From an uncultured Candidatus Saccharibacteria bacterium (lineage in GTDB: Bacteria > Patescibacteriota > Minisyncoccia > Phycocordibacterales > WO2-35-19), in NCBI GenBank assembly GCA_964630525.1, contig CAZVUY010000001.1, positions 114,901 to 178,900 on the forward strand: a DNA stretch of 64,000 bases. The letters run 5' to 3'. Positions 380-52,607 of the stretch are shown one piece after another. Made by a program: the position numbers and the translations under genes. The notes beneath the pieces are model-generated. The model did no database searches. It was given only the letters and a program-made list of their open reading frames with translations, and was not told the DNA's origin. Positions within the stretch are counted from its first letter, which is position 1; each line of letters opens with the position of its first letter.

Positions 380-745
380 ATGAGAAACGATATAGATACA
401 AACTATTTCAAGGGGAAGCTCGAGGAGGAGTTGGTTTTGGTAGAAAAAGAGCTCAACGATGTTGGACGTAAAAACCCCGACAACGCCAAAGACTGGGAAG
501 CGGAACCGGCAGACTTAGACACCAGCACCGCTGATGATAGTGAAACCGCCGACAAAATAGAAGAGTTCGAGGGAAATACCGCCATTCTAAAAGAGCTCGA
601 AATCAGATACAACGATATCAAAGACGCTCTCGCTAAAATAGAAAAAGAGGAATATGGTTTTTGCGAAGTTTGCGGTGCGCCAATCGAAGAAGATCGTCTC
701 AAAGCCAATCAGGCCGCCCGCACTTGCAAAACTCATATGCAATAA
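380..745 (+). CDS. DksA/TraR-family C4 zinc-finger protein
   Basis: The C-terminal motif CEVCGAPIEEDRLKANQAARTCKTHMQ (CxxC...C) and an acidic coiled-coil N-terminus are typical of DksA/TraR. Confidence 0.6.
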   Translation: MRNDIDTNYFKGKLEEELVLVEKELNDVGRKNPDNAKDWEAEPADLDTSTADDSETADKIEEFEGNTAILKELEIRYNDIKDALAKIEKEEYGFCEVCGAPIEEDRLKANQAARTCKTHMQ

Positions 746-766
746 TGATTAAAAGATTGAACTATC

Positions 767-2302
767 ATGTCCTACGCGAAAGTTCACAGCGCTCAGGCAC
801 ACCTACTAAAACCTTATATTGTTGACGTGGAAGCAGACCTCTCGCGGGGTCTGAATTCGTTTTCGATCGTTGGGTTGGGGGACAAGGCAGTCGATGAGGC
901 TAAAGACCGGATCAGTGCTGCAGTCAAAAATACCGGCTTCGAATCTCCCAAGTCCAAAAATCACAAGGTAGTGATTTCTCTAGCGCCAGCTGAGATCAGG
1001 AAGGAGGGCTCGGGTTTGGATGTAGCCATCGCCCTCTCTTATCTTCTAGCCAGCGGCGAGGTGGTTTTTGATCCAACTGACAAAATATTTTTGGGCGAAC
1101 TCTCACTCGACGGATCGCTGCGATCAGTGAGAGGTGCTTTGGCCTTTGCTCGCAAAGCCAAAGAGGCCGGCTTTAAAGAAGTCTACTTGCCAGTGGAAAA
1201 TACGACTGAAGCCGCGCTGGTGCATGGGATTCGTATTTTTGGAGCGGGCACCCTACAAGAAATAATCAACCATATCGCTCGAGACGCCGATGTGAAGCAA
1301 AAAATAAAACCAGAAAAACCGAGAGAGATTAGAAACACTCAGGAAATAATTTCAGACCTCGCTGATATCAAAGGTCAGGAGGCAGCCAAGCGCGCACTGG
1401 AGATCGCCGCGGCTGGTGGCCACAACATTGCTCTCTACGGCCCACCAGGGACAGGGAAGACCATGCTCGCTCGAGCCTTATCGAGCATTTTGCCCCCACT
1501 TTCGGCAGAGGAAATTTTTGAAGTAACAGAGATTCATTCGATGATCGGTGCACTGGATTATGATCTGCTCTCGGTCCGACCTTTTCGTTCACCACACCAC
1601 ACCGCTTCTCATGTAGCGATCATTGGGGGTGGCAGCAATCCGCGCCCCGGCGAAGTGACTCTGGCTCACAAAGGAGTTCTGTTCTTGGATGAATTTCCTG
1701 AATTTGAAAACAAAGCGATCGAAGCGTTAAGAGAGCCGTTGGAAGAAAGAGTGGTCTCGGTTTCTCGAGCCAAAGGCACGGTCAAATTTCCCGCTCACTT
1801 TATTTTGGTCGCCGCCATGAACCCTTGCCCTTGCGGCAACTTCGGCATCAAAGGCAAACCTTGCACCTGTTCGCCTCTCCAAATAGAAAGATACAAGCGC
1901 AAAATATCGGGACCTATTATTGACCGCATTGACATCTGGACCGAAGTTTCCAAAGTCGATCACGACAAGCTTACTGAAAAATCGGAGAAGAGTGAAAGTT
2001 TGCTGGCACGCGCGAGAGTTCTGCGAGCGAGAGATATCCAAAGCAAGAGATTTAAATTGGCAGGTCGCCAGATCGACACCAACGCAGAGATGAACGCTCG
2101 CGATATCGCCTCGATTTTAGAAATATCAGAAGAAGTCAAAGATATTTTGAACCGCTCCGCCAAGACTCTCGACCTCTCCGCCCGCTCCTATCATAAAATA
2201 ATCAAGCTCGCCCGCACCATCGCCGACCTGCAATCTAGTGCCGAAATCGCCCCTGCCCACCTCCTCGAAGCCATCTCTTATCGGCCTAAACAAAATCGCT
2301 AA
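767..2302 (+). CDS. comM: ComM/YifB Mg-chelatase-like AAA+ ATPase (competence-associated)
   Basis: An N-terminal Lon-like domain, the Walker A GPPGTGKT, the Walker B LFLDEF, a CxxC zinc ribbon and the C-terminal Mg-chelatase subunit ChlI-like region are all present. Confidence 0.8.
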   Translation: MSYAKVHSAQAHLLKPYIVDVEADLSRGLNSFSIVGLGDKAVDEAKDRISAAVKNTGFESPKSKNHKVVISLAPAEIRKEGSGLDVAIALSYLLASGEVVFDPTDKIFLGELSLDGSLRSVRGALAFARKAKEAGFKEVYLPVENTTEAALVHGIRIFGAGTLQEIINHIARDADVKQKIKPEKPREIRNTQEIISDLADIKGQEAAKRALEIAAAGGHNIALYGPPGTGKTMLARALSSILPPLSAEEIFEVTEIHSMIGALDYDLLSVRPFRSPHHTASHVAIIGGGSNPRPGEVTLAHKGVLFLDEFPEFENKAIEALREPLEERVVSVSRAKGTVKFPAHFILVAAMNPCPCGNFGIKGKPCTCSPLQIERYKRKISGPIIDRIDIWTEVSKVDHDKLTEKSEKSESLLARARVLRARDIQSKRFKLAGRQIDTNAEMNARDIASILEISEEVKDILNRSAKTLDLSARSYHKIIKLARTIADLQSSAEIAPAHLLEAISYRPKQNR

Positions 2303-5570: not shown

Positions 5571-5588
5571 TTTTACTCCTTATTTTTG

Positions 5589-6013
5589 TGGAGAAGGGGG
5601 CATTGAAGCCCCATCCAGATAAGTTTTAACAATGTTTCTACGCGATATATTCAACTTTGTTTCCGCCGATGAGACGGAAAATTCGACGCTTGTTCTTTAA
5701 AATTGAAGAAACAAACAAACGTCTAGTTTTTTAGTTCAAACATAGAGTAAACACTTTCCATGTCCTAAGTCCGATTTATTACAATTATTTCTTCCTCCGG
5801 ACGAAGAAAGAATAACCGTCGTTTAGGCCTGAACTTAATTAAGCTCGAGCGTAAGCGAAAGCAAAGTCATTGACTCCAAAGTATGGAGAAACAACGCCTT
5901 TTGCTTTTGCAACAATGTTTTCAGCATTTATTGCTTTCTCACCTTTTTAAGAGTTATGAGAGCTCTACCGCGCACATTGTCAAAGATCCTACCTGTCTAA
6001 ACCTTTCATCCCC
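5589..6013 (-). ncRNA. ssrA: tmRNA (ssrA)
   Basis: The minus strand begins GGGGAUGAAAGGUUUAGACAGG, matching the tmRNA 5' consensus GGGG.UG....GGUUU.GACAGG. The 3' end is a T-arm GGGGC-UUCAAU-GCCCC followed by the acceptor CUUCUCC and discriminator A, giving G3:U70 alanine identity. CCA is not encoded. The internal reading frame runs ...GUC AAU GAC UUU GCU UUC GCU UAC GCU CGA GCU UAA. The gene lies directly downstream of smpB on the same strand. Confidence 0.8.
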
Positions 6014-9138: not shown

Positions 9139-9215
9139 CCGCCCTTAGCTCAGTTGGTTAGAGCACAGAGCTTATACCTCTGGGGTCCCACGTTCGAATC
9201 GTGGAGGGCGGACCA
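9139..9215 (+). tRNA. tRNA, anticodon loop CUUAUAC gives anticodon UAU (Ile, AUA-decoding type)
   Basis: The cloverleaf has acceptor CCGCCCU/AGGGCGG, D-arm GCUC-AGUUGGUUA-GAGC, anticodon stem CAGAG/CUCUG, T-arm CCACG-UUCGAAU-CGUGG, discriminator A and an encoded CCA. The 1:72 pair is C:G, which is unusual. Confidence 0.6.
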
Positions 9216-46370: not shown

Positions 46371-46799
46371 ATGGAAAATCAAAGTTTATTTAAAGAATAC
46401 AAAGGAGTTTTTGAAGAAGAAGTCGAAACTCCAAAAGAAAAGAAAGAGCTTGAATATACGTATTCTCCTTTTGCCCTACAAGATGCGATTGGGGAGCGGA
46501 ATGTTAAAAATATTTGGATACAATACAACAAACTCATCTTCCAAGGTGTTGAACCCGAAGAGTTGGTCCATAAAATTGTTGGCAAAGTGAGAGATATGGT
46601 GGCGATCGGTGCTGGGGCTAGTGCGCTAGACTTGGGTATCAAAGATTATCCATTCAATAAATCAAAAAAAGATTTGAAAAATTGGAAAACAGACGATTTG
46701 AAAAATTTTTATACCAAACTAATCACTCTTTATCACGAATCAAGAATGGGTGGTGATGAGCTAGGGATTGCTTTAGAGAAAGCACTGCTAAGTTTATAA
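46371..46799 (+). CDS. Hypothetical protein; its last ~25 codons are duplicated at 48122-48199
   Basis: The C-terminus is ...HESRMGGDELGIALEKALLSL. Confidence 0.5.
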   Translation: MENQSLFKEYKGVFEEEVETPKEKKELEYTYSPFALQDAIGERNVKNIWIQYNKLIFQGVEPEELVHKIVGKVRDMVAIGAGASALDLGIKDYPFNKSKKDLKNWKTDDLKNFYTKLITLYHESRMGGDELGIALEKALLSL

Positions 46800-46842: not shown

Positions 46843-48108
46843 TTACCCAGCAAAACCTATAAAAGCGACGTATCTCCCAATTACAGCTCCAACTATCACA
46901 ATAATAATACACACGGAAAGAGTGATCATCAGATGAGATGGAGTGGCGTTAGTCGCTATTCCAGATAATTTCTTTTTATTGTTAAACTTGTAAGCCATTA
47001 CGGTAAAAATTATTGCGGAAATCCAGTAAAAAAAGATTGGGTCTGTTGTTTGTCCCACTACTTCACCCAAACGGGCAACAAAAATATTCCTGTAGGCGCT
47101 GTTTAGGAAACCATATTCCGAAGTTAGGGTAGACAATAAAGCGAGAATACTTGTAAAAAACCCTGCAAAAGAATAAACGTTTATTTTTACAAAATCATTC
47201 GTATTGTTTTTATAAATTAAAAATCCAATAAAGATGATTAGTAGAATTCGCATGATGTTTGTAAAAACCCCAGTCTCTAAGCCGGGAGTAATTTTTACAT
47301 CATCAATCATTGTGGGAAAATTTGTTGTCGTGTAATCCAACCACTGGCCCCTCTCTTTTTGTAACTGCTCTAATGTTGCAATATCGCTGATTTTTCTTAC
47401 CTGACTGTAAGAATTGTATGCTACATGGGGGTAAACGCTCCTATAAATTCCTGGCGAGATTTCCCCTTCATAACCTATTCCACCCGGACTGTATTTAACG
47501 GTATAATCCGCGGCGGGGACACTTATTATGTAATCATTATATTCTGCTGCTAATGCGTATATGTCGGTCACATCTACGTTGTCAAAATACTTTGTAATTT
47601 TAAAATAATGAGTACATGAACCATTACCACATAAGAAATTTATAATTTCTGTATCAGGGGCTTGGCCACTTGTTACAGGAAGACCATTACTTTGGGGGAA
47701 AGGCGTCTGGTCATCAGTGGTTACAGTAGGAATTGTTATTCCAAATTTATTACTAATTTCTAAACTCCCAGGAGCAATAATATATATCTTAAAACCATAG
47801 CCAGAACCATAAATGTCTGGAACAATCAAACTATATGAACCATTATTTGGTACTCCGGAAGCAATTTCATATACATAATTTCTGTCAGGGTTGTCGTTAT
47901 TCGGTACTTCTAGCTTAATATCAACAGTAGGAGAATTGGTGAAAGTGTTCCACTTTATATCAAAACTTGAACCTTGGACCAAATTTTCATTACCACTAGG
48001 GGCAAGAATAAAAGAGCTTGGGCTCGGTGTAGTAACTTGCGCGTAGATATGGAATGGGAATAAGACTAAAAACTCAAAAATAGCTATAAACGCTATTATC
48101 CTTCTCAT
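46843..48108 (-). CDS. Hypothetical surface protein: signal peptide, extracellular domain, C-terminal multi-TM anchor
   Basis: It is 421 aa with at least 4 C-terminal hydrophobic helices. Direct repeats at 46732-46765 and 48132-48165 bracket it. Confidence 0.55.
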   Translation of the reverse strand: MRRIIAFIAIFEFLVLFPFHIYAQVTTPSPSSFILAPSGNENLVQGSSFDIKWNTFTNSPTVDIKLEVPNNDNPDRNYVYEIASGVPNNGSYSLIVPDIYGSGYGFKIYIIAPGSLEISNKFGITIPTVTTDDQTPFPQSNGLPVTSGQAPDTEIINFLCGNGSCTHYFKITKYFDNVDVTDIYALAAEYNDYIISVPAADYTVKYSPGGIGYEGEISPGIYRSVYPHVAYNSYSQVRKISDIATLEQLQKERGQWLDYTTTNFPTMIDDVKITPGLETGVFTNIMRILLIIFIGFLIYKNNTNDFVKINVYSFAGFFTSILALLSTLTSEYGFLNSAYRNIFVARLGEVVGQTTDPIFFYWISAIIFTVMAYKFNNKKKLSGIATNATPSHLMITLSVCIIIVIVGAVIGRYVAFIGFAG

Positions 48109-48239
48109 TCTGAAATATTACATGAACCAACATCACGAATCAAGAATGGGTGGTGATGAGCTAGGTCTTGACCTCGAAAAGGCGATTCTCAAACTTTGAT
48201 TTATTATAATTTTATAGTATATTTGCTCTTGTATTTATT

Positions 48240-48315
48240 GCGCCCGTAGCTCAGTCGGTAGAGCAGCTCCCTTTTAAGGAGATGGTCGTAGGTTCGATTC
48301 CTACCGGGCGCACCA
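48240..48315 (+). tRNA. tRNA-Lys (anticodon UUU)
   Basis: Acceptor GCGCCCG/CGGGCGC, D-arm GCUC-AGUCGGUA-GAGC, anticodon loop CUUUUAA, T-arm GUAGG-UUCGAUU-CCUAC and an encoded CCA. Confidence 0.85.
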
Positions 48316-49779
48316 GAAAGGAAATTGCAAGTCAGAGCTCGCCGCCTCGCTCTGCTCGGCGGCTCGCGCGTATTGTATTTTCGGCTCAAAACGGAATTCG
48401 CGATTTCGCAAAACATGGTTCGCGCCGATGTTTTTTAGAAATGCTGTCATTTTGGCAAAATCATTTTCGTTAGTCAGATTCGCGGCTTGATTCAAGGATA
48501 AAACAAATTCACGAGCCGGTTCGAGCCAAGACGCTCCTTTTTGCTCGATGTCGGTAATTTTCTCCTCCAATCGCACTTTTTCATACACGAGAGAGTTCTT
48601 TTTGGCGGCGTATTCGTCTGTGGATAGCGCGTCAGAAAGATAAAGGTTGAGAAGTTTTTCGAGCTTTGCCTCAATCTGCGCGAGTTCTCTTTTTAGAGTT
48701 TCCGCTTCTGTTCGCGCTTCCTCCTTTGCTTGCTCCTCGTCTTGTTCCAACGCCGCCAAAACTTTCTTGGTGTCTTGGCCCGATAAAGAAACTTTTTGAA
48801 GATAAGTTTTGATTTGCGCGGCAAGCATAGTTTCGCTGATGTAGCGTTCCGGGCACGCGCCTCGTTTTTTGGTACAGCGATAGTAGGTATAAGAGCCACC
48901 ATTGCCTTTTGCATATTGCGCGGTAATAGAACAACCGCACGAGGCGCATTTGAGTAGTCCGAGGAACGCGAAACTGTGTTTGCGGTCTGGTCGCACCTTG
49001 CCGCGCTTTTGCATAACTTCTTGGCATTTATCAAAAAGTTTCTTTGAAATTAACGGCTCGTGTTTTCCCTCAAAAGTTTCCGACTTGTACCTCATCAAAC
49101 CAGTGTAGAAAGGATTTTGGAGTATGGACTGAACATTGCTTAATGATATTTTCTTGCCTTTGTTGCCGAGCAGTTTCTTTTTCTCACACCAATTTGCGAG
49201 AGCAGAAAGTGGATATGCTCCGGTGGCGTAGAGTTCAAACATTTTTCTCACTTTCGGTGCTTTGTCGGGGTCAATATCAATTATTCTCGTCTTGGGATTG
49301 TTGAGATAGCCCACCGGAGCCCAGCCGGGCCATACTCCATTTCGTATCTTTTGCCGCAAACCTCTTTTTACATTCTCTCTCAAATTGTCTACGAAATATT
49401 TACTCTGTCCGAAAGCAATGTTCAACATAAACAAGCCTTGTGGTGTCGGTTCAAACCAAAAAGTCGGAAACTTGAGGGAACGAATCAAGCCGCGATCAAT
49501 CAGATGTATGATTTTGCCTCCGTCCACCGAATTTCGGGCAAGGCGGTCGGGGTGCCACGCGATAATGCCGTCTGCTTTTTGTCGTTCAATCAATGACAGC
49601 ATTTCTGCGAACTTCGTTCGCCCGGGCTCTTTTGCGGTTTTCGCCTCCTCAAAGGAGGCGACAATTTCAAGTTTTTCTTTGACGGCGAATGCGCGCAACT
49701 CTTCAAGTTGCGCCTGAATAGAAAGCACCTGTCTGTCCTCTTCCTCTGTACTTTTTCTTGCGTAGAGTATGTATCTCAT
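48301..49779 (-). CDS. Large serine recombinase (resolvase/invertase catalytic domain + recombinase domain + zinc ribbon)
   Basis: It carries YARKST and the active-site Ser region, ...VGYLNNPKT..., CxxC...C, and a coiled-coil C-terminus. The ORF reads through IR-A into the tRNA, so the true 3' end is uncertain. GC content is visibly higher than in flanking genes. Confidence 0.8.
   Translation of the reverse strand: MRYILYARKSTEEEDRQVLSIQAQLEELRAFAVKEKLEIVASFEEAKTAKEPGRTKFAEMLSLIERQKADGIIAWHPDRLARNSVDGGKIIHLIDRGLIRSLKFPTFWFEPTPQGLFMLNIAFGQSKYFVDNLRENVKRGLRQKIRNGVWPGWAPVGYLNNPKTRIIDIDPDKAPKVRKMFELYATGAYPLSALANWCEKKKLLGNKGKKISLSNVQSILQNPFYTGLMRYKSETFEGKHEPLISKKLFDKCQEVMQKRGKVRPDRKHSFAFLGLLKCASCGCSITAQYAKGNGGSYTYYRCTKKRGACPERYISETMLAAQIKTYLQKVSLSGQDTKKVLAALEQDEEQAKEEARTEAETLKRELAQIEAKLEKLLNLYLSDALSTDEYAAKKNSLVYEKVRLEEKITDIEQKGASWLEPAREFVLSLNQAANLTNENDFAKMTAFLKNIGANHVLRNREFRFEPKIQYARAAEQSEAASSDLQFPFWCAR
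48309..48408. repeat. ~100-bp perfect inverted repeat IR-A (partner 49826-49925) bracketing the serine recombinase; begins inside the tRNA-Lys 3' end
   Basis: gcaccagaaaggaaattgcaagtcagagctcgcc...cggaattcgcgatttcg has an exact reverse complement at 49826-49925. Confidence 0.7.
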
Positions 49780-49825
49780 GTTGTTTTGATTGAATTAAGG
49801 ATTAAAAATTTTTCTTCCCCTCAAA

Positions 49826-49925
49826 CGAAATCGCGAATTCCGTTTTGAGCCGAAAATACAATACGCGCGAGCCGCCGAGCAGAGCGAGGCGGCGAGCTCT
49901 GACTTGCAATTTCCTTTCTGGTGCA
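49826..49925. repeat. IR-A' (inverted copy of 48309-48408)
   Basis: It is an exact reverse complement of IR-A. The 26-bp IR-C ggattaaaaatttttcttcccctcaa (49799-49824) precedes it, and its partner is at 50061-50086. Confidence 0.7.
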
Positions 49926-50012
49926 GGATACTTGAATTAGTGCGAACCCACCGCGCCTTCGGCGCGGCACAACCCCCGCCAAAAATGCAGGCGGCGAAGC
50001 CGCACCGCTCAA
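49921..50012. repeat. ~92-bp perfect inverted repeat IR-B (partner 51006-51097) bracketing a membrane-protein gene
   Basis: gtgcaggatacttgaattagtgcgaacccaccgcgccttcggcgcggcacaacccccgccaaaaatgcaggcggcgaagccgcaccgctcaa has an exact reverse complement at 51006-51097. Confidence 0.7.
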
Positions 50013-50257
50013 AACCGCAAAAGAGCCCGGAAAAAACATCGGCGCGAACCATGTTTTGAATTGAGGGGAAGAAAAATTTTTAATCCAATAAATTCCCAAG
50101 GAAGAAGCCGCAATCGTGCGGATTTTTCGTTGCCCTTGACGTAAGGTACGGAATATGCTATGCTTATTTGCGAAAGATTGAGCCATGGTGGCTTGGTCGC
50201 AATAGCACATTTTCAACTCAAAAAACGGAGGTGCAGCTTGAGCGCAGAAACGATTGG

Positions 50258-50849
50258 CATGGTTTCTGGGCTGTTGGTGGTGGCGAGCGTCATCCCTTAC
50301 AGCATCAGAACCCACCAGGGCAAGGTGCAGCCGAACCTGACGAGCTGGTCGCTCTGGACGCTGATCGGCCTCGCCCTCTTGCTCACTTACAAGAGTTCGG
50401 GTGCCGAAGCGAACGTCTGGCCAGCGGTGTTCGGGTTCACTAACCCGCTCCTCATCACCTTGCTTGTTCTCAAACAGCATGGTGGGTGGACGAAGCCAAA
50501 CCGAGTCGAGGTCGCTTGTCTCGTGTTTGGCCTGTTGTCTCTCGGCCTGTGGCTGGGAGTTCGCGAAAACAAGGAGATGGCCCAATGGGCTCTCTATCTG
50601 GCAATTGTCGCGGACTTGTTCGCGGCGATTCCCACGATTGTGTTCGTGTGGACGCAACCGAATGGCGACCGACCGTTTGCTTGGGCGTTCTTCGCCGTCG
50701 GCTATGGTCTGGCAATCTTCGCCATTACCGAACACACCTTCGCGAACTACGTTCTCCCGCTCTACATGTTCTTCGGAGCGTTGAGCGTTACTCTCCCACT
50801 CGTTCTGTATCGGTGGCGACACAAAGTCCCGTTGTCGGAGTGGGTATGA
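50258..50849 (+). CDS. Hypothetical polytopic membrane protein (about 6 TM) inside IR-B/IR-B' segment
   Basis: The sequence from MVSGLLVVASVIPYS... onward is GC-rich. The track ORF starts at 50160. The antisense ORF 49821-50975 is an alternative that I judge spurious. Confidence 0.45.
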
Positions 50850-51005
50850 GTCAGAGACGAATAGCAAATCCGAGGCCCCTTGTGGTAGCAACATCACCAC
50901 TTGGGGCCTTTCTTCTTTTTGATTTGTTTGGTTATTTTTCATACAATACATTTGGTGTTTGCTTCGCAAACTCACATTTATTCGCCGTCAAAGAAAAACT
51001 TGAAA

Positions 51006-51097
51006 TTGAGCGGTGCGGCTTCGCCGCCTGCATTTTTGGCGGGGGTTGTGCCGCGCCGAAGGCGCGGTGGGTTCGCACTAATTCAAGTATCCTGCAC
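51006..51097. repeat. IR-B' (inverted copy of 49921-50012)
   Basis: It is an exact reverse complement of IR-B. Confidence 0.7.
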
Positions 51098-51280
51098 AAA
51101 ATAGCGGAGCAATTTTGTGCGCCCGAGCAAGCAAACTGCTTTGCTTGCGGGTAGGAATCGAACGGCGGAATGTGAAATTTGGAGCACCAAATTTCCATGA
51201 GCCGGTGCCCAGACCAAAAATTTGTGACTGACAAATTTTTGAGTCGAGGGAGATATTCCTACCGAGATTTTATTATTATC

Positions 51281-51309
51281 TTGACAAATCCTTCCCAAAG
51301 AGGTAATTT
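51281..51309 (+). promoter_or_regulatory. Sigma70-like promoter (TTGACA-17-TAATTT) with strong SD AAGGAGG before 51387
   Basis: ttgacaaatccttcccaaagaggtaattt is followed by ggctaaggaggtcgcATG. Confidence 0.45.
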
Positions 51310-51386
51310 TGTGGTGGAACCGACTCAGACTTTTCCTATATGGGATTGCTCTGAAATCTACAAGCCTATATGGCTAAGGAGGTCGC

Positions 51387-51923
51387 ATGATAACACAAAG
51401 AGCCTTCAAAAAGCTCGCTGAACAGAACCGTTGGTTGGTTGGTGCCTTGGAAAATCTGAAGCATCCCGACGACGACAGACCGTTTGAACGACGGGTCAAG
51501 GAGAGCATTGCCTTTATCGCTTTTCGCCCATTTGAGAAGCTGAGTCCAAACTGGCTGGCAAAGGGTGAATTTTACCCAATCTTCCACAAATCTCGGATGG
51601 CTGGAAGTGACGGAGCAATGTGTAGCTCCTATCCGCTTATTGTTTTTCATAAAGAGGGTTGGGAAGGCTTCAAGTATGTCCAACTCTCTCCACTCAACAC
51701 GGGTCTGACGATCGGGAAATGTATGGAGTGGTATGTAGACACTGCAAAGAAGAATGGATATCCAAAATGTATTGCCTTTGATGCAGTTATTATCCCGCTT
51801 CAAGTTCGCATCAACCCACACCGAATGATCGCCGAGTGTTACGAGATTTACCGATTTCCCGAGCCACTTGATTTTAAGTTTGACGACTTCAAGAAGTGGC
51901 TGGTAACCGCACCGCAGGAGTAA
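51387..51923 (+). CDS. Hypothetical protein (island cargo)
   Basis: It is 178 aa with no motif I recognise. It has a strong RBS and promoter. Confidence 0.5.
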   Translation: MITQRAFKKLAEQNRWLVGALENLKHPDDDRPFERRVKESIAFIAFRPFEKLSPNWLAKGEFYPIFHKSRMAGSDGAMCSSYPLIVFHKEGWEGFKYVQLSPLNTGLTIGKCMEWYVDTAKKNGYPKCIAFDAVIIPLQVRINPHRMIAECYEIYRFPEPLDFKFDDFKKWLVTAPQE

Positions 51924-52202
51924 TCAGAGGCTCGCCTAGTAGTGGAGACACGAACGGCGAGTCTTCTTCGTTTTTATATTGACAATTCGTGCACAAAACA
52001 ATATTCTTCCGTCTAAGTCAGGTTCCTTGCGGAATGGAATGGGTAGAACGCGGTCAAGTCTGAACTGCAAGCTAGTATAGAGTTCGTGCCATTCTTCACT
52101 TGCTCCAACGTATAAGTGAGCGAGGCTTCTCTTGGGTTGGAAATCTGACAAGTGCCCGGGCGTTCACGCGTCCGGGCTATAATTTATACAAATAAGTATT
52201 TT

Positions 52203-52607
52203 CTACAACGGTAAATCGACAGCGAAGGCGCCGGCGCCGGAGAGGAGAAGGGAGAGTAGGATTGATAAAATCAAAATATAGAAGACAAAGTTTCTTTTGA
52301 GAATGCTCGGGTCTTTATATTCCACATAAGCTTCGGCAAAGGTGAGGAGGGCGAGCACTAGGGCAATGATTTGGGTATAAAATCCAACTAGCAACATAAG
52401 TCCTCCGATCACCTCGACGGTACCCAGTATTTTGACTGCCAATTCTGGTCTCGGTATTCGGAGGGCGGAACAGGAAACTATCCAACACCTCTTTTCGTTT
52501 TTGAAGGCGAGAGCGCCCAAATTTACGAATATCAAACCCACCACCACCCGGATAATAAAAGGCGAAAGAAGCGAGAAGGCGAGCAGGTCTGGAAATGGAT
52601 TTAACAT
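52203..52607 (-). CDS. DoxX-family membrane protein
   Basis: It has four hydrophobic helices and LLSPFIIRVVVGLIFVNLGALAF...GTVEVIGGLMLLVGFYTQIIALV. Confidence 0.7.
   Translation of the reverse strand: MLNPFPDLLAFSLLSPFIIRVVVGLIFVNLGALAFKNEKRCWIVSCSALRIPRPELAVKILGTVEVIGGLMLLVGFYTQIIALVLALLTFAEAYVEYKDPSILKRNFVFYILILSILLSLLLSGAGAFAVDLPL

Follow-up and report, generated by a model that had tools for sequence, protein, structure and literature searches.

In the acceptor-plus-T minihelix, the acceptor helix and the T helix are stacked on each other. RNase P, the CCA-adding enzyme and EF-Tu recognise this shape, and it recurs with other domains grafted onto it in tRNA-like domains such as the TLD of tmRNA, the viral 3' tRNA-like structures and YrlA/Y RNA; in tmRNA the body is carried between the acceptor and T arms. 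The primer-binding site of LTR elements is the complement of the 3' 18 nt of a tRNA, and the islands and CIMEs that occupy tRNA and tmRNA genes are marked by direct repeats from the T-loop to the 3' end and by accretion in tandem. In attenuators and riboswitches, a segment 2 pairs alternatively with segment 1 or segment 3. Large serine recombinases (LSRs) use att sites with a short core, as in phiC31, Bxb1 and A118 and in the tycheposons at tRNA genes (bioRxiv 10.1101/2020.12.28.424599). In Patescibacteria, which make up a large share of bacterial diversity, the non-coding repertoire is nearly unexplored. The region described here, positions 51098..51270 of a 64-kb window (the whole stretch of DNA that was analysed), is one copy of a widespread Patescibacteria module that trails tRNA and tmRNA genes. 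The membership of the window copy in this family is well supported, and neither Rfam 15 nor the literature that could be searched contains a description of the module.

The module stands beside a recombinase element, and the two have to be separated before either can be read. Self-comparison of the region gives a mosaic of exact inverted blocks in which the core GCAC is common to three junctions, tRNA|A (48310-48313), A'|F (49921-49924, inverted) and F'|X (51094-51097), which we read as attL, an inverted attP-like junction and attR. The tRNA-Lys(UUU) gene lies at 48240..48315 on the plus strand (ARAGORN; Rfam tRNA, 74.1 bits), and at attL, placed by the block boundaries and the L003 overlap, its B arm passes into element arm A; the CA of its encoded CCA is contributed by the inserted element. 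The predicted empty site tRNA|X was recovered in Logan contig L003 (ERR14821854), which fuses window positions 48259-48313 straight to 51094-52294 with GCAC as the sole overlap. Because L003 joins the tRNA-Lys 3' end directly to 51094, positions 48314..51097 are an insertion; the L003 junction is attB, and the crossover is GCAC. This 2784-bp LSR element, separate from the module and absent from L003, contains on the minus strand the LSR gene (48301-49779; Pfam Resolvase, Recombinase and Zn_ribbon_recom), whose stop codon falls within the T-stem of tRNA-Lys, as well as the internal inverted attP-like junction (49826-50012, core 49921-49924), an ORF for a cargo membrane protein (50160-50849) and the P arm (51006-51097), which meets the host B' arm at attR. 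Positions 51098 to about 51270 are the native 3' flank of tRNA-Lys on the host (B') side of attR, and the integration of the 2.8-kb element at the last bases of the tRNA displaced this flank by 2.8 kb. This architecture is seen again in dozens of loci, and the recurrence of the block layout in dozens of independent MAGs rules out an assembly or MDA chimera as the origin of the exact inverted blocks.

Relatives of this LSR number more than 545 in GTDB species representatives, nearly all of which are labelled Patescibacteria MAGs, and almost all of their loci have an overlap between the 3' ends of the LSR and of a convergently oriented tRNA gene (Val, Arg, Leu, Lys, Phe, Ile, Gly, Tyr, Asn, Glu, Gln, Ala or Met). 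The crossover core tracks the tRNA terminus, being GCAC, CCAC or GAGC. The element-side P arm is conserved across the family (…GCGTTCGAACTAATTCAAGAATACTGCAC) and carries a T-loop-like GTTCG 27 nt from the core end, against 22 nt in the tRNA B arm; GTTCGAA is thus 5 nt farther from the core in the P arm than in the tRNA, a shift that agrees with the known offset between attP and attB half-sites. No similarity was found among the host-side B' arms of at least 20 related LSR insertions, most of which are without hairpins of the kind seen at attR in the window. Of 28 LSR-occupied sites, only about 5 have the module (the window, L063, L069, L070 and L078); in the last four the flank holds an inverted copy of the T-arm of its own tRNA, in some of them with a hairpin whose core is CAAACTGCTTTG. 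Among the matches listed, an LSR gene accompanies 3 of about 120 module loci, and all three are distant (31-47% identity). The LSR family is mostly without the module and the module mostly without an LSR, and their independence is well supported.

The first-pass annotation had marked three palindromes just beyond the inserted element, and these are present as placed, at 51094-51120 (9-9-9), 51127-51148 (9-4-9) and 51174-51195 (9-4-9); it overlooked a fourth perfect palindrome at 51215-51241 (11-5-11). Perfect palindromes with arms of at least 9 bp number about 17 distinct ones in the 64-kb window, and four of them are clustered within 150 bp (51094-51241). The annotation had also noted that the tRNA-Lys 3' end recurs here in inverted, disrupted form, at the far edge of the region tied to the recombinase. 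Both the derivation and the position hold, the attR crossover GCAC (51094-51097) being the first four bases of palindrome 1. The minus-strand sequence GTTCGATTCCTACC (51150-51163) equals tRNA-Lys 48292-48305, and this 14-mer occurs in the window at these two places alone, where 0.01 occurrences are expected, so that the alignment to the tRNA 3' half is better than chance. The second part of the copy, CGGGCGCAC (minus strand, 51117-51125), lies past an insert of 23-24 nt that consists of palindrome 2 and its linkers, and the middle palindrome does separate the two halves as had been described. The match is longer than first noted, since 14 nt of acceptor strand and trailer (CGGGCGCACAAAAT, in L003) pair with 51112-51125.

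These parts, all on the plus strand, resolve into an ordered structure in which palindromes 1-4 are helices of the module. The 3' part of tRNA-Lys (48292-48313) is the upstream direct repeat, DR1 or T, and the template of the module arms. Palindrome 1 (51094..51120) is the apical part of a long hairpin formed by T and its inverted copy T'; in the empty site its arms reach 14 bp (CGGGCGCACAAAAT / ATTTTGTGCGCCCG) by using the acceptor 3' strand of the tRNA, and a counterpart, either a loop or a terminator hairpin, is found across the family. The first part of T' (51112..51125) is the complement of the tRNA-Lys acceptor 3' strand, the discriminator and 6 nt of trailer, and the second part (51150..51163) is the complement of the T-stem 3' strand and the T-loop (GGTAGGAATCGAAC). 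Between acceptor complement and T-stem complement, exactly, stands palindrome 2 (51127..51148), the conserved hairpin GCAAGCAAACTGCTTTGCTTGC. The body follows with two predicted helices: body helix 1 (51163..51204; RNAfold, and RNAalifold of 11 homologues) is built of CGGC/GCCG and AUG/CAU around palindrome 3 (51174-51195), which has a conserved AGCA loop, and body helix 2 (51208..51250; fold and compensatory changes) of CCC/GGG and GAC/GUC around palindrome 4 (51215-51241), with the loop GACUG. Last comes a degenerate direct repeat, DR2 (51255..51264; ATTCCTACCG = tRNA 48296-48305), which pairs with 51150-51158 and so closes the body; these nucleotides of T' have in 51255-51263 an alternative partner. 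The whole module in the window amounts to about 173 nt (51098..51270), its right boundary being set by the related contig L207, in which homology starts only at 51281. The 64-kb window contains one copy.

A scan of JGI metagenomes with the palindrome 2 pattern GCAAGCMAACTGCTTKGCTTGC matched at least 120 contigs, a sample that is biased to one hairpin variant by the use of an exact 22-mer. A covariance model gave 130 matches in 0.68 Mb of module-containing contigs, themselves selected by that hairpin, and for 91 of the 130 (about 70%) a tRNA or tmRNA gene on the same strand ends no more than 120 nt upstream; 17 amino-acid identities are represented among the tRNA neighbours, in addition to tmRNA. 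The other 39 comprise 7 matches at locus edges and 32 without a called tRNA within 120 nt upstream, some of which are plausibly explained by tandem second copies and by intron-bearing tRNA genes that ARAGORN misses. The density reaches 4 copies per 15 kb, and tandem copies occur in L095, L134, L140, L096, L174 and L201. The layout is constant across copies. It starts with the tRNA 3' end (T), which spans the T-loop through the acceptor strand and often a further 5-30 nt of trailer, and continues with a short loop that in many copies contains an intrinsic-terminator-like hairpin. T', the inverted copy of all of T including the trailer, comes next and is broken at the boundary of acceptor complement and T-stem complement, exactly, by the conserved 22-nt hairpin with the linkers RA and G, after which a near-invariant GAA complements the universal TTC of the T-loop. 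The body of 90-150 nt consists of two helices, and at least three sequence types of it can be told apart by eye. DR2, a direct repeat of T, ends the module and has its first base at a median of 127 nt from the hairpin start; an intact DR2 of 13-57 nt is found within 330 nt in 40 of 107 copies, and the window copy retains 10 nt. The module measures about 175-190 nt and encodes no protein.

Folding and covariation suggest what kind of molecule is conserved. In the empty site, the predicted fold of T, T' and palindrome 2 is a three-way junction (-60.3 kcal/mol, z = -9.95), and the T'-body-DR2 fold of the window has z = -7.1. In an RNAalifold alignment of 11 window-like copies, compensatory double changes are seen in 22 of 36 predicted pairs, including those of palindromes 3 and 4, and conservation is found in the loops (AGCA; GACG or GACUG) and in the junction strands CGAACRGCGGA, GAGCYGGTGCCCAGAC and AGTCGMGGG. 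For the palindrome 2 hairpin, an alignment of 127 distinct copies has 99.7% of cells paired and compensatory changes at 8 of 9 pairs, a covariation that was reached by 0 of 500 shuffles. In 94 of 104 copies the predicted fold is more stable for the tRNA-sense (+) strand than for the complementary one, by a mean of 7.8 kcal/mol (p = 5e-15), an asymmetry that can be inflated by G+U-rich composition. Covariation and strand asymmetry both speak for an RNA of the same sense as the tRNA, and the module probably works as RNA.

The arms tell a different part of the history. They fit the local tRNA: complementarity reaches 9 of 10 bases or more in 36-46% of their own loci against 1% for other loci. Within one genome (L102, L100), two copies have bodies that are about 97-99% identical and arms that are different. 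No excess of G-U over A-C was found among the mismatches of T':T arm pairs, so the arms look like DNA-level copies rather than selected RNA pairs, and non-tRNA trailer sequence is copied in the arms as well; together with bodies that are alike and arms that are different, these observations argue for copying at the DNA level and not for RNA-pair selection alone. Such copying could proceed by insertion with target-derived arms, or by gene conversion or palindrome correction. In L100 the T' arm is closer to DR2 than to the actual tRNA, which suggests that the T':DR2 helix is itself maintained. Sequence conservation at the tRNA-Lys locus is high. Over the 203 nt past the crossover, the window and L003 have 100% identity, compared with 95.9% for the remainder of L003, and the module of L205 has 1 mismatch to that of the window in about 150 visible nt (about 99%), compared with 87% identity in the L205 genes. 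A module-free allele at tRNA-Lys was not found, L003, L001/L002 and L205/L206 all having the module and L207 being rearranged. The window copy has a degenerate 10-nt DR2 and a T split from T' by the LSR insertion, yet it is 100% conserved, so the module may not have to adjoin the tRNA. In many copies the terminator-like hairpin lies between the tRNA and T', which speaks against the two being routinely transcribed together.

We propose, with a probability of roughly 60%, that the region is a native-flank module displaced by the LSR, expressed as RNA in the tRNA sense and acting as a minihelix mimic or 3'-trailer element at tRNA ends. T' would have two alternative partners. With the 3' half of the tRNA upstream it would form the three-way junction of -60 kcal/mol, which would compete with the cloverleaf and sequester that half, whereas with DR2 it would form a continuous coaxial helix of acceptor and T parts, a 12-bp minihelix that exactly reproduces the one in the adjacent tRNA, with the conserved hairpin in the place of the D and anticodon arms and the body in the place of the T-loop. 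As a minihelix mimic, the module may be recognised by tRNA-handling enzymes, for example RNase P or the CCA-adding enzyme; this function is a guess. Copying at the level of DNA, whether by gene conversion or by an insertion whose arms derive from the target, would spread the module among tRNA 3' ends or keep its copies there alike, and the module would have no part in LSR recombination.

The predicted T':DR2 fold, with its acceptor helix stacked on a T helix and its grafted domains, resembles the known tRNA-like domains. In contrast to these, its minihelix copies the neighbouring tRNA, whatever the identity of that tRNA, its body replaces the T-loop and not the anticodon domain, it has an alternative partner in the real tRNA 3' end, and it is without an Rfam match. 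The mutually exclusive helices of T, T' and DR2 are analogous to the alternative pairing of attenuators and riboswitches, with the difference that segment 1 is here the functional 3' half of a tRNA; mutually exclusive pairing would by itself explain why DR1 and DR2 stay alike. The complementarity to the acceptor 3' strand, T-stem and T-loop of a specific tRNA recalls a retroviral or LTR primer-binding site, but here the complement includes genomic trailer, is without the complement of CCA, is split by a hairpin and has no linked reverse transcriptase. A complement that spans the trailer and not the CCA disfavours tRNA-primed reverse transcription.

It is also possible, though we hold it clearly less probable, that the module is a small non-autonomous mobile or integrative DNA element at tRNA and tmRNA 3' ends, of a CIME-like or MITE-like kind or comparable to the single-stranded hairpins of integron attC and the CTXphi attP. 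The direct repeats would then have arisen as att-type duplications, folding of T' onto T would imitate a double-stranded target, and the conserved helices would serve as recombinase or processing signals; the origin would be shared with the minihelix-mimic reading and the role of the helices would differ. Direct repeats that begin at the T-loop and extend past the tRNA 3' end are the classical footprint of tRNA integration, and here they flank the module with at least 13 nt in 40 of 107 copies. The tandem copies, the occupation of 17 tRNA identities and tmRNA at up to 4 copies per 15 kb, the near-identical bodies with different arms within one genome (L100, L102) and the copying of even the trailer without a G-U bias all fit this account. 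Islands and CIMEs share with the module these T-loop-to-3'-end repeats, the tandem accretion and the tRNA and tmRNA targets, but the module has only about 190 nt, no integrase nearby, and an interior with an inverted repeat copy that is split by a conserved hairpin and helices that covary like RNA. Neither a cognate integrase in cis nor a related autonomous element was found, and no protein family, recombinases and reverse transcriptases included, recurs beside the module. No large autonomous version and no empty/occupied pair of the module itself turned up, and the same tRNA-Lys carries it in strains that are 4-13% diverged. The hairpin position is set by tRNA structure, the strand asymmetry favours RNA, and the module is absent from 2.9 million viral contigs. 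A MITE proper is disfavoured by inverted arms that are local tRNA copies, different at each locus, and by repeats of 13-57 nt, not of a fixed length. As a tentative possibility, the module may define a class of protein-less elements of about 190 nt in Patescibacteria that install themselves behind any tRNA or tmRNA with arms written from the local target. These arms would be one inverted and one direct copy of the 3' end together with its trailer, so that each element would mimic the acceptor/T minihelix of its own tRNA.

Two further readings keep the region in more familiar categories. The palindromes had initially been taken for crossover or accessory sites of the serine recombinase, or operators, and the inverted fragment for a degenerate att site of an inversion system, which we now regard as the least probable of the explanations considered. 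The stretch does begin exactly at the attR crossover, palindrome 1 would lie inside the B' contact of about 25 bp that known att-site sizes suggest for an LSR subunit, and the module is slightly commoner at LSR-occupied tRNAs (about 5 of 28, small numbers) than at the other tRNAs there; like other LSR att sites, the left edge is an attR with a short core, and the empty attB has been recovered. However, 51094-51300 is 100% identical in the recombinase-free empty site L003, so the palindromes predate the insertion, and palindromes 2-4 lie 30-145 bp from the crossover, outside the minimal site and past any LSR half-site. The module is missing at most sites used by the LSR family and occurs at more than 100 tRNA and tmRNA loci without a nearby LSR, and its helices covary in the fashion of RNA. 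Since the B' arms of the family share nothing, the palindromes cannot be recognition or accessory sites of this LSR. A palindromic attB with the inverted tRNA copy as its B' half-site is excluded by geometry, the symmetry centre being 12 nt from the crossover and the copy beginning 52 nt away, and again by the unconserved B' arms. What was thought to be an att remnant is instead the arm of a conserved module, matching whichever tRNA stands upstream. Only slightly better placed, and still very improbable, is a decayed tandem paralogue of tRNA-Lys (a pseudo-tRNA), or a set of ordinary terminator-like or REP-like hairpins without a particular function. The acceptor complement is identical to the 5' acceptor strand of the tRNA and the T-stem complement resembles the 5' strand of the T-stem, which would allow a tandem-duplicate ancestor, and the loop of many copies does contain a terminator-like hairpin. 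T', on the other hand, holds the complement of the T-loop and trailer and must therefore be an inverted and not a direct copy. Neither strand is called a tRNA by ARAGORN or Rfam, which also rejects a tRNA, tRNA-like gene or pseudogene on the minus strand, where the CGCC upstream of GTTCG cannot pair with CCTAC. The same hairpin and body, with compensatory changes, stand at unrelated tRNAs in many genomes. Generic terminators, the outcome that the first-pass annotation had named as evidence against its own reading, are likewise not what was found: no intrinsic terminator was called on the plus strand at palindromes 1-4, which have no U-tracts there, and the stems of palindromes 1, 3 and 4 are A+T-rich without a T-tail. 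Palindrome 2 is single in the window even with up to 3 mismatches allowed, so the palindromes are not generic genome-wide terminators. The single copy of the module in 64 kb and the 203 nt that are perfectly conserved between strains also count against ordinary hairpins.

The module is abundant, conserved in structure and tied to all kinds of tRNA and tmRNA 3' ends, and it fits no element class that could be tested here. If the arms are templated at insertion, it would represent a target-copying mobility mechanism without a described counterpart; if it is a host RNA, it would represent a new class of RNA linked to tRNAs, which may govern or make use of the 3'-end processing of tRNA in organisms whose RNA-processing machinery is minimal. 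It bears on the processing and policing of tRNA 3' ends in reduced genomes, on the biological use of RNA minihelix mimics beyond tmRNA and viruses, and on whether an element can take up a copy of its own target. In practice, short-read assemblies break at the module hairpins and the module can be mistaken for att sites of the very common LSR cassettes that target tRNA genes, as happened in the first annotation of this region.

Searches for partners and for known classes were negative within their scope. Within 3 kb on either side of 125 copies no recurrent protein family was found, the 611 clustered ORFs giving only housekeeping genes, which rejects a linked recombinase, reverse transcriptase or nuclease. 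No long "autonomous" version is present in the data, and the lack of any match in the 2.9 million contigs of IMG/VR speaks against a phage origin. The module had no match in Rfam 15 (window at E up to 10, 14 loci at E up to 1, and at the gathering threshold), and full-text literature yielded no description of it or of this LSR family in Patescibacteria. Membership of ORF178 in a larger island with the module was rejected, because the ORF is rare (2 relatives) and absent at other module loci. The junction sequences, compared by eye only, did not match hammerhead or other self-cleaving cores, and the module gave no intron match that would relate it to group I introns. Such introns have been described in the tRNA genes of Patescibacteria (PMC13011429), and the introns seen in L127 and L063 belong, as in that report, to the adjacent tRNA genes.

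The large serine recombinase (LSR) encoded in the window belongs to a family of more than 545 relatives, almost all of them in Patescibacteria, for which no description was found in the literature searched. Across the compared loci L004-L083 this family integrates at the very 3' end of tRNA genes, which represent at least 13 identities; the crossover core follows the last bases of the target tRNA, and the P arm, on the element side, carries a T-loop-like GTTCGAA whose distance from the core exceeds that in the tRNA by exactly 5 nt. Comparison with the empty site of a related strain (L003:52-60 versus window 48310-48315) revealed that the uninterrupted tRNA-Lys gene has no encoded CCA (…GCGCACAAAAT), whereas after insertion it reads …GCGCACCA, the CA being contributed by the LSR element. 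The LSR ORF in turn crosses attL, the junction of tRNA and element, and ends inside the tRNA with a TAG in the T-stem (48301-48303, within 48301-48315), as it also does at L004-L083. If the element were excised or inverted, the ORF would continue into the repeat block F and become about 50 residues longer.

Self-comparison of the LSR element (window 48310-51104) resolved a mosaic of exact inverted repeats, comprising the pairs A/A' (99 nt) and F/F' (92-99 nt), both inverted and exact, together with the inverted blocks B, C, D, E and G of 15-29 nt. Immediately upstream of the LSR gene, at 49826-50012, the attP junction (A'|F) is present as an inverted internal copy, and stretches from the N- and C-terminal coding sequence of the LSR itself are duplicated in several of the small blocks. 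The same layout, built from other sequences, recurs in dozens of MAGs (loci L004-L083), which rules out an assembly artefact as the source of the mosaic. Perfect inverted repeats flank the LSR gene and likewise the cargo gene, and in this bracketing of each of its two genes the element is reminiscent of the yeast 2-micron plasmid. Each LSR element (2.4-3.1 kb) holds a single cargo gene, which varies from element to element; judged by eye, the kinds include membrane or secreted proteins and methyltransferase-like, flavoprotein-like, radical-SAM-like and HTH-like proteins. The elements behave like one-gene cassettes. The cargo in the window (50160-50849) has a G+C content of 0.55-0.59, above that of its surroundings.

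Short-read assemblies are broken by these repeats and by the hairpins of the module, the structured protein-less unit that trails tRNA and tmRNA genes. Logan contigs from four samples terminate within its palindromes 3 or 4 (starts at window 51190 for L001/L002 and 51235 for L205/L206), and many MAG contigs stop just upstream of the LSR gene.

The module family is wider than the sample collected through its conserved hairpin (palindrome 2), as indicated by related tRNA-trailing modules that have the inverted T-arm copy and lack the CAAACTGCTTTG hairpin (…GGATTCGAACGGGAAGGGGGTCGGGGAAACGG…; L064:4776-4916 and 5761-5899, L069:4396-4625, L078:4265-4494). Group I introns adjoin or interrupt tRNA genes on module-bearing contigs (L127:245-478(-) and 714-1004(+); L063:2023-2312(-)), in agreement with PMC13011429; their host tRNA goes undetected by ARAGORN, so that some modules seem to have no upstream tRNA. 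In a variant with the same conserved hairpin (L137:2363-2440(-), L063:9099-9129(-), L076 near 2064-2083(-)), the hairpin is preceded by a copy of a tRNA 5' part, namely the acceptor strand and D-arm (…TAGCTCAGTGGG), and an intact tRNA lies downstream. In Patescibacteria, group I introns are reported to sit at anticodon-loop position 35/36, and this is where the partial copy in L137 stops.

Elsewhere in the window, a perfect 34-nt direct repeat (46732-46765 and 48132-48165) brackets a minus-strand ORF of 421 aa (46843-48108) that encodes a Kre9/KNH-like domain and is situated a short way upstream of tRNA-Lys; a tRNA-Ile with anticodon UAU lies at 9139-9215. The tmRNA at 5588-6013(-) encodes an unusually long tag (AENIVAKAKGVVSPYFGVNDFAFAYARA); in favour of the window being of Patescibacteria origin, similar tags are found on the module-bearing metagenome contigs L164 and L181.
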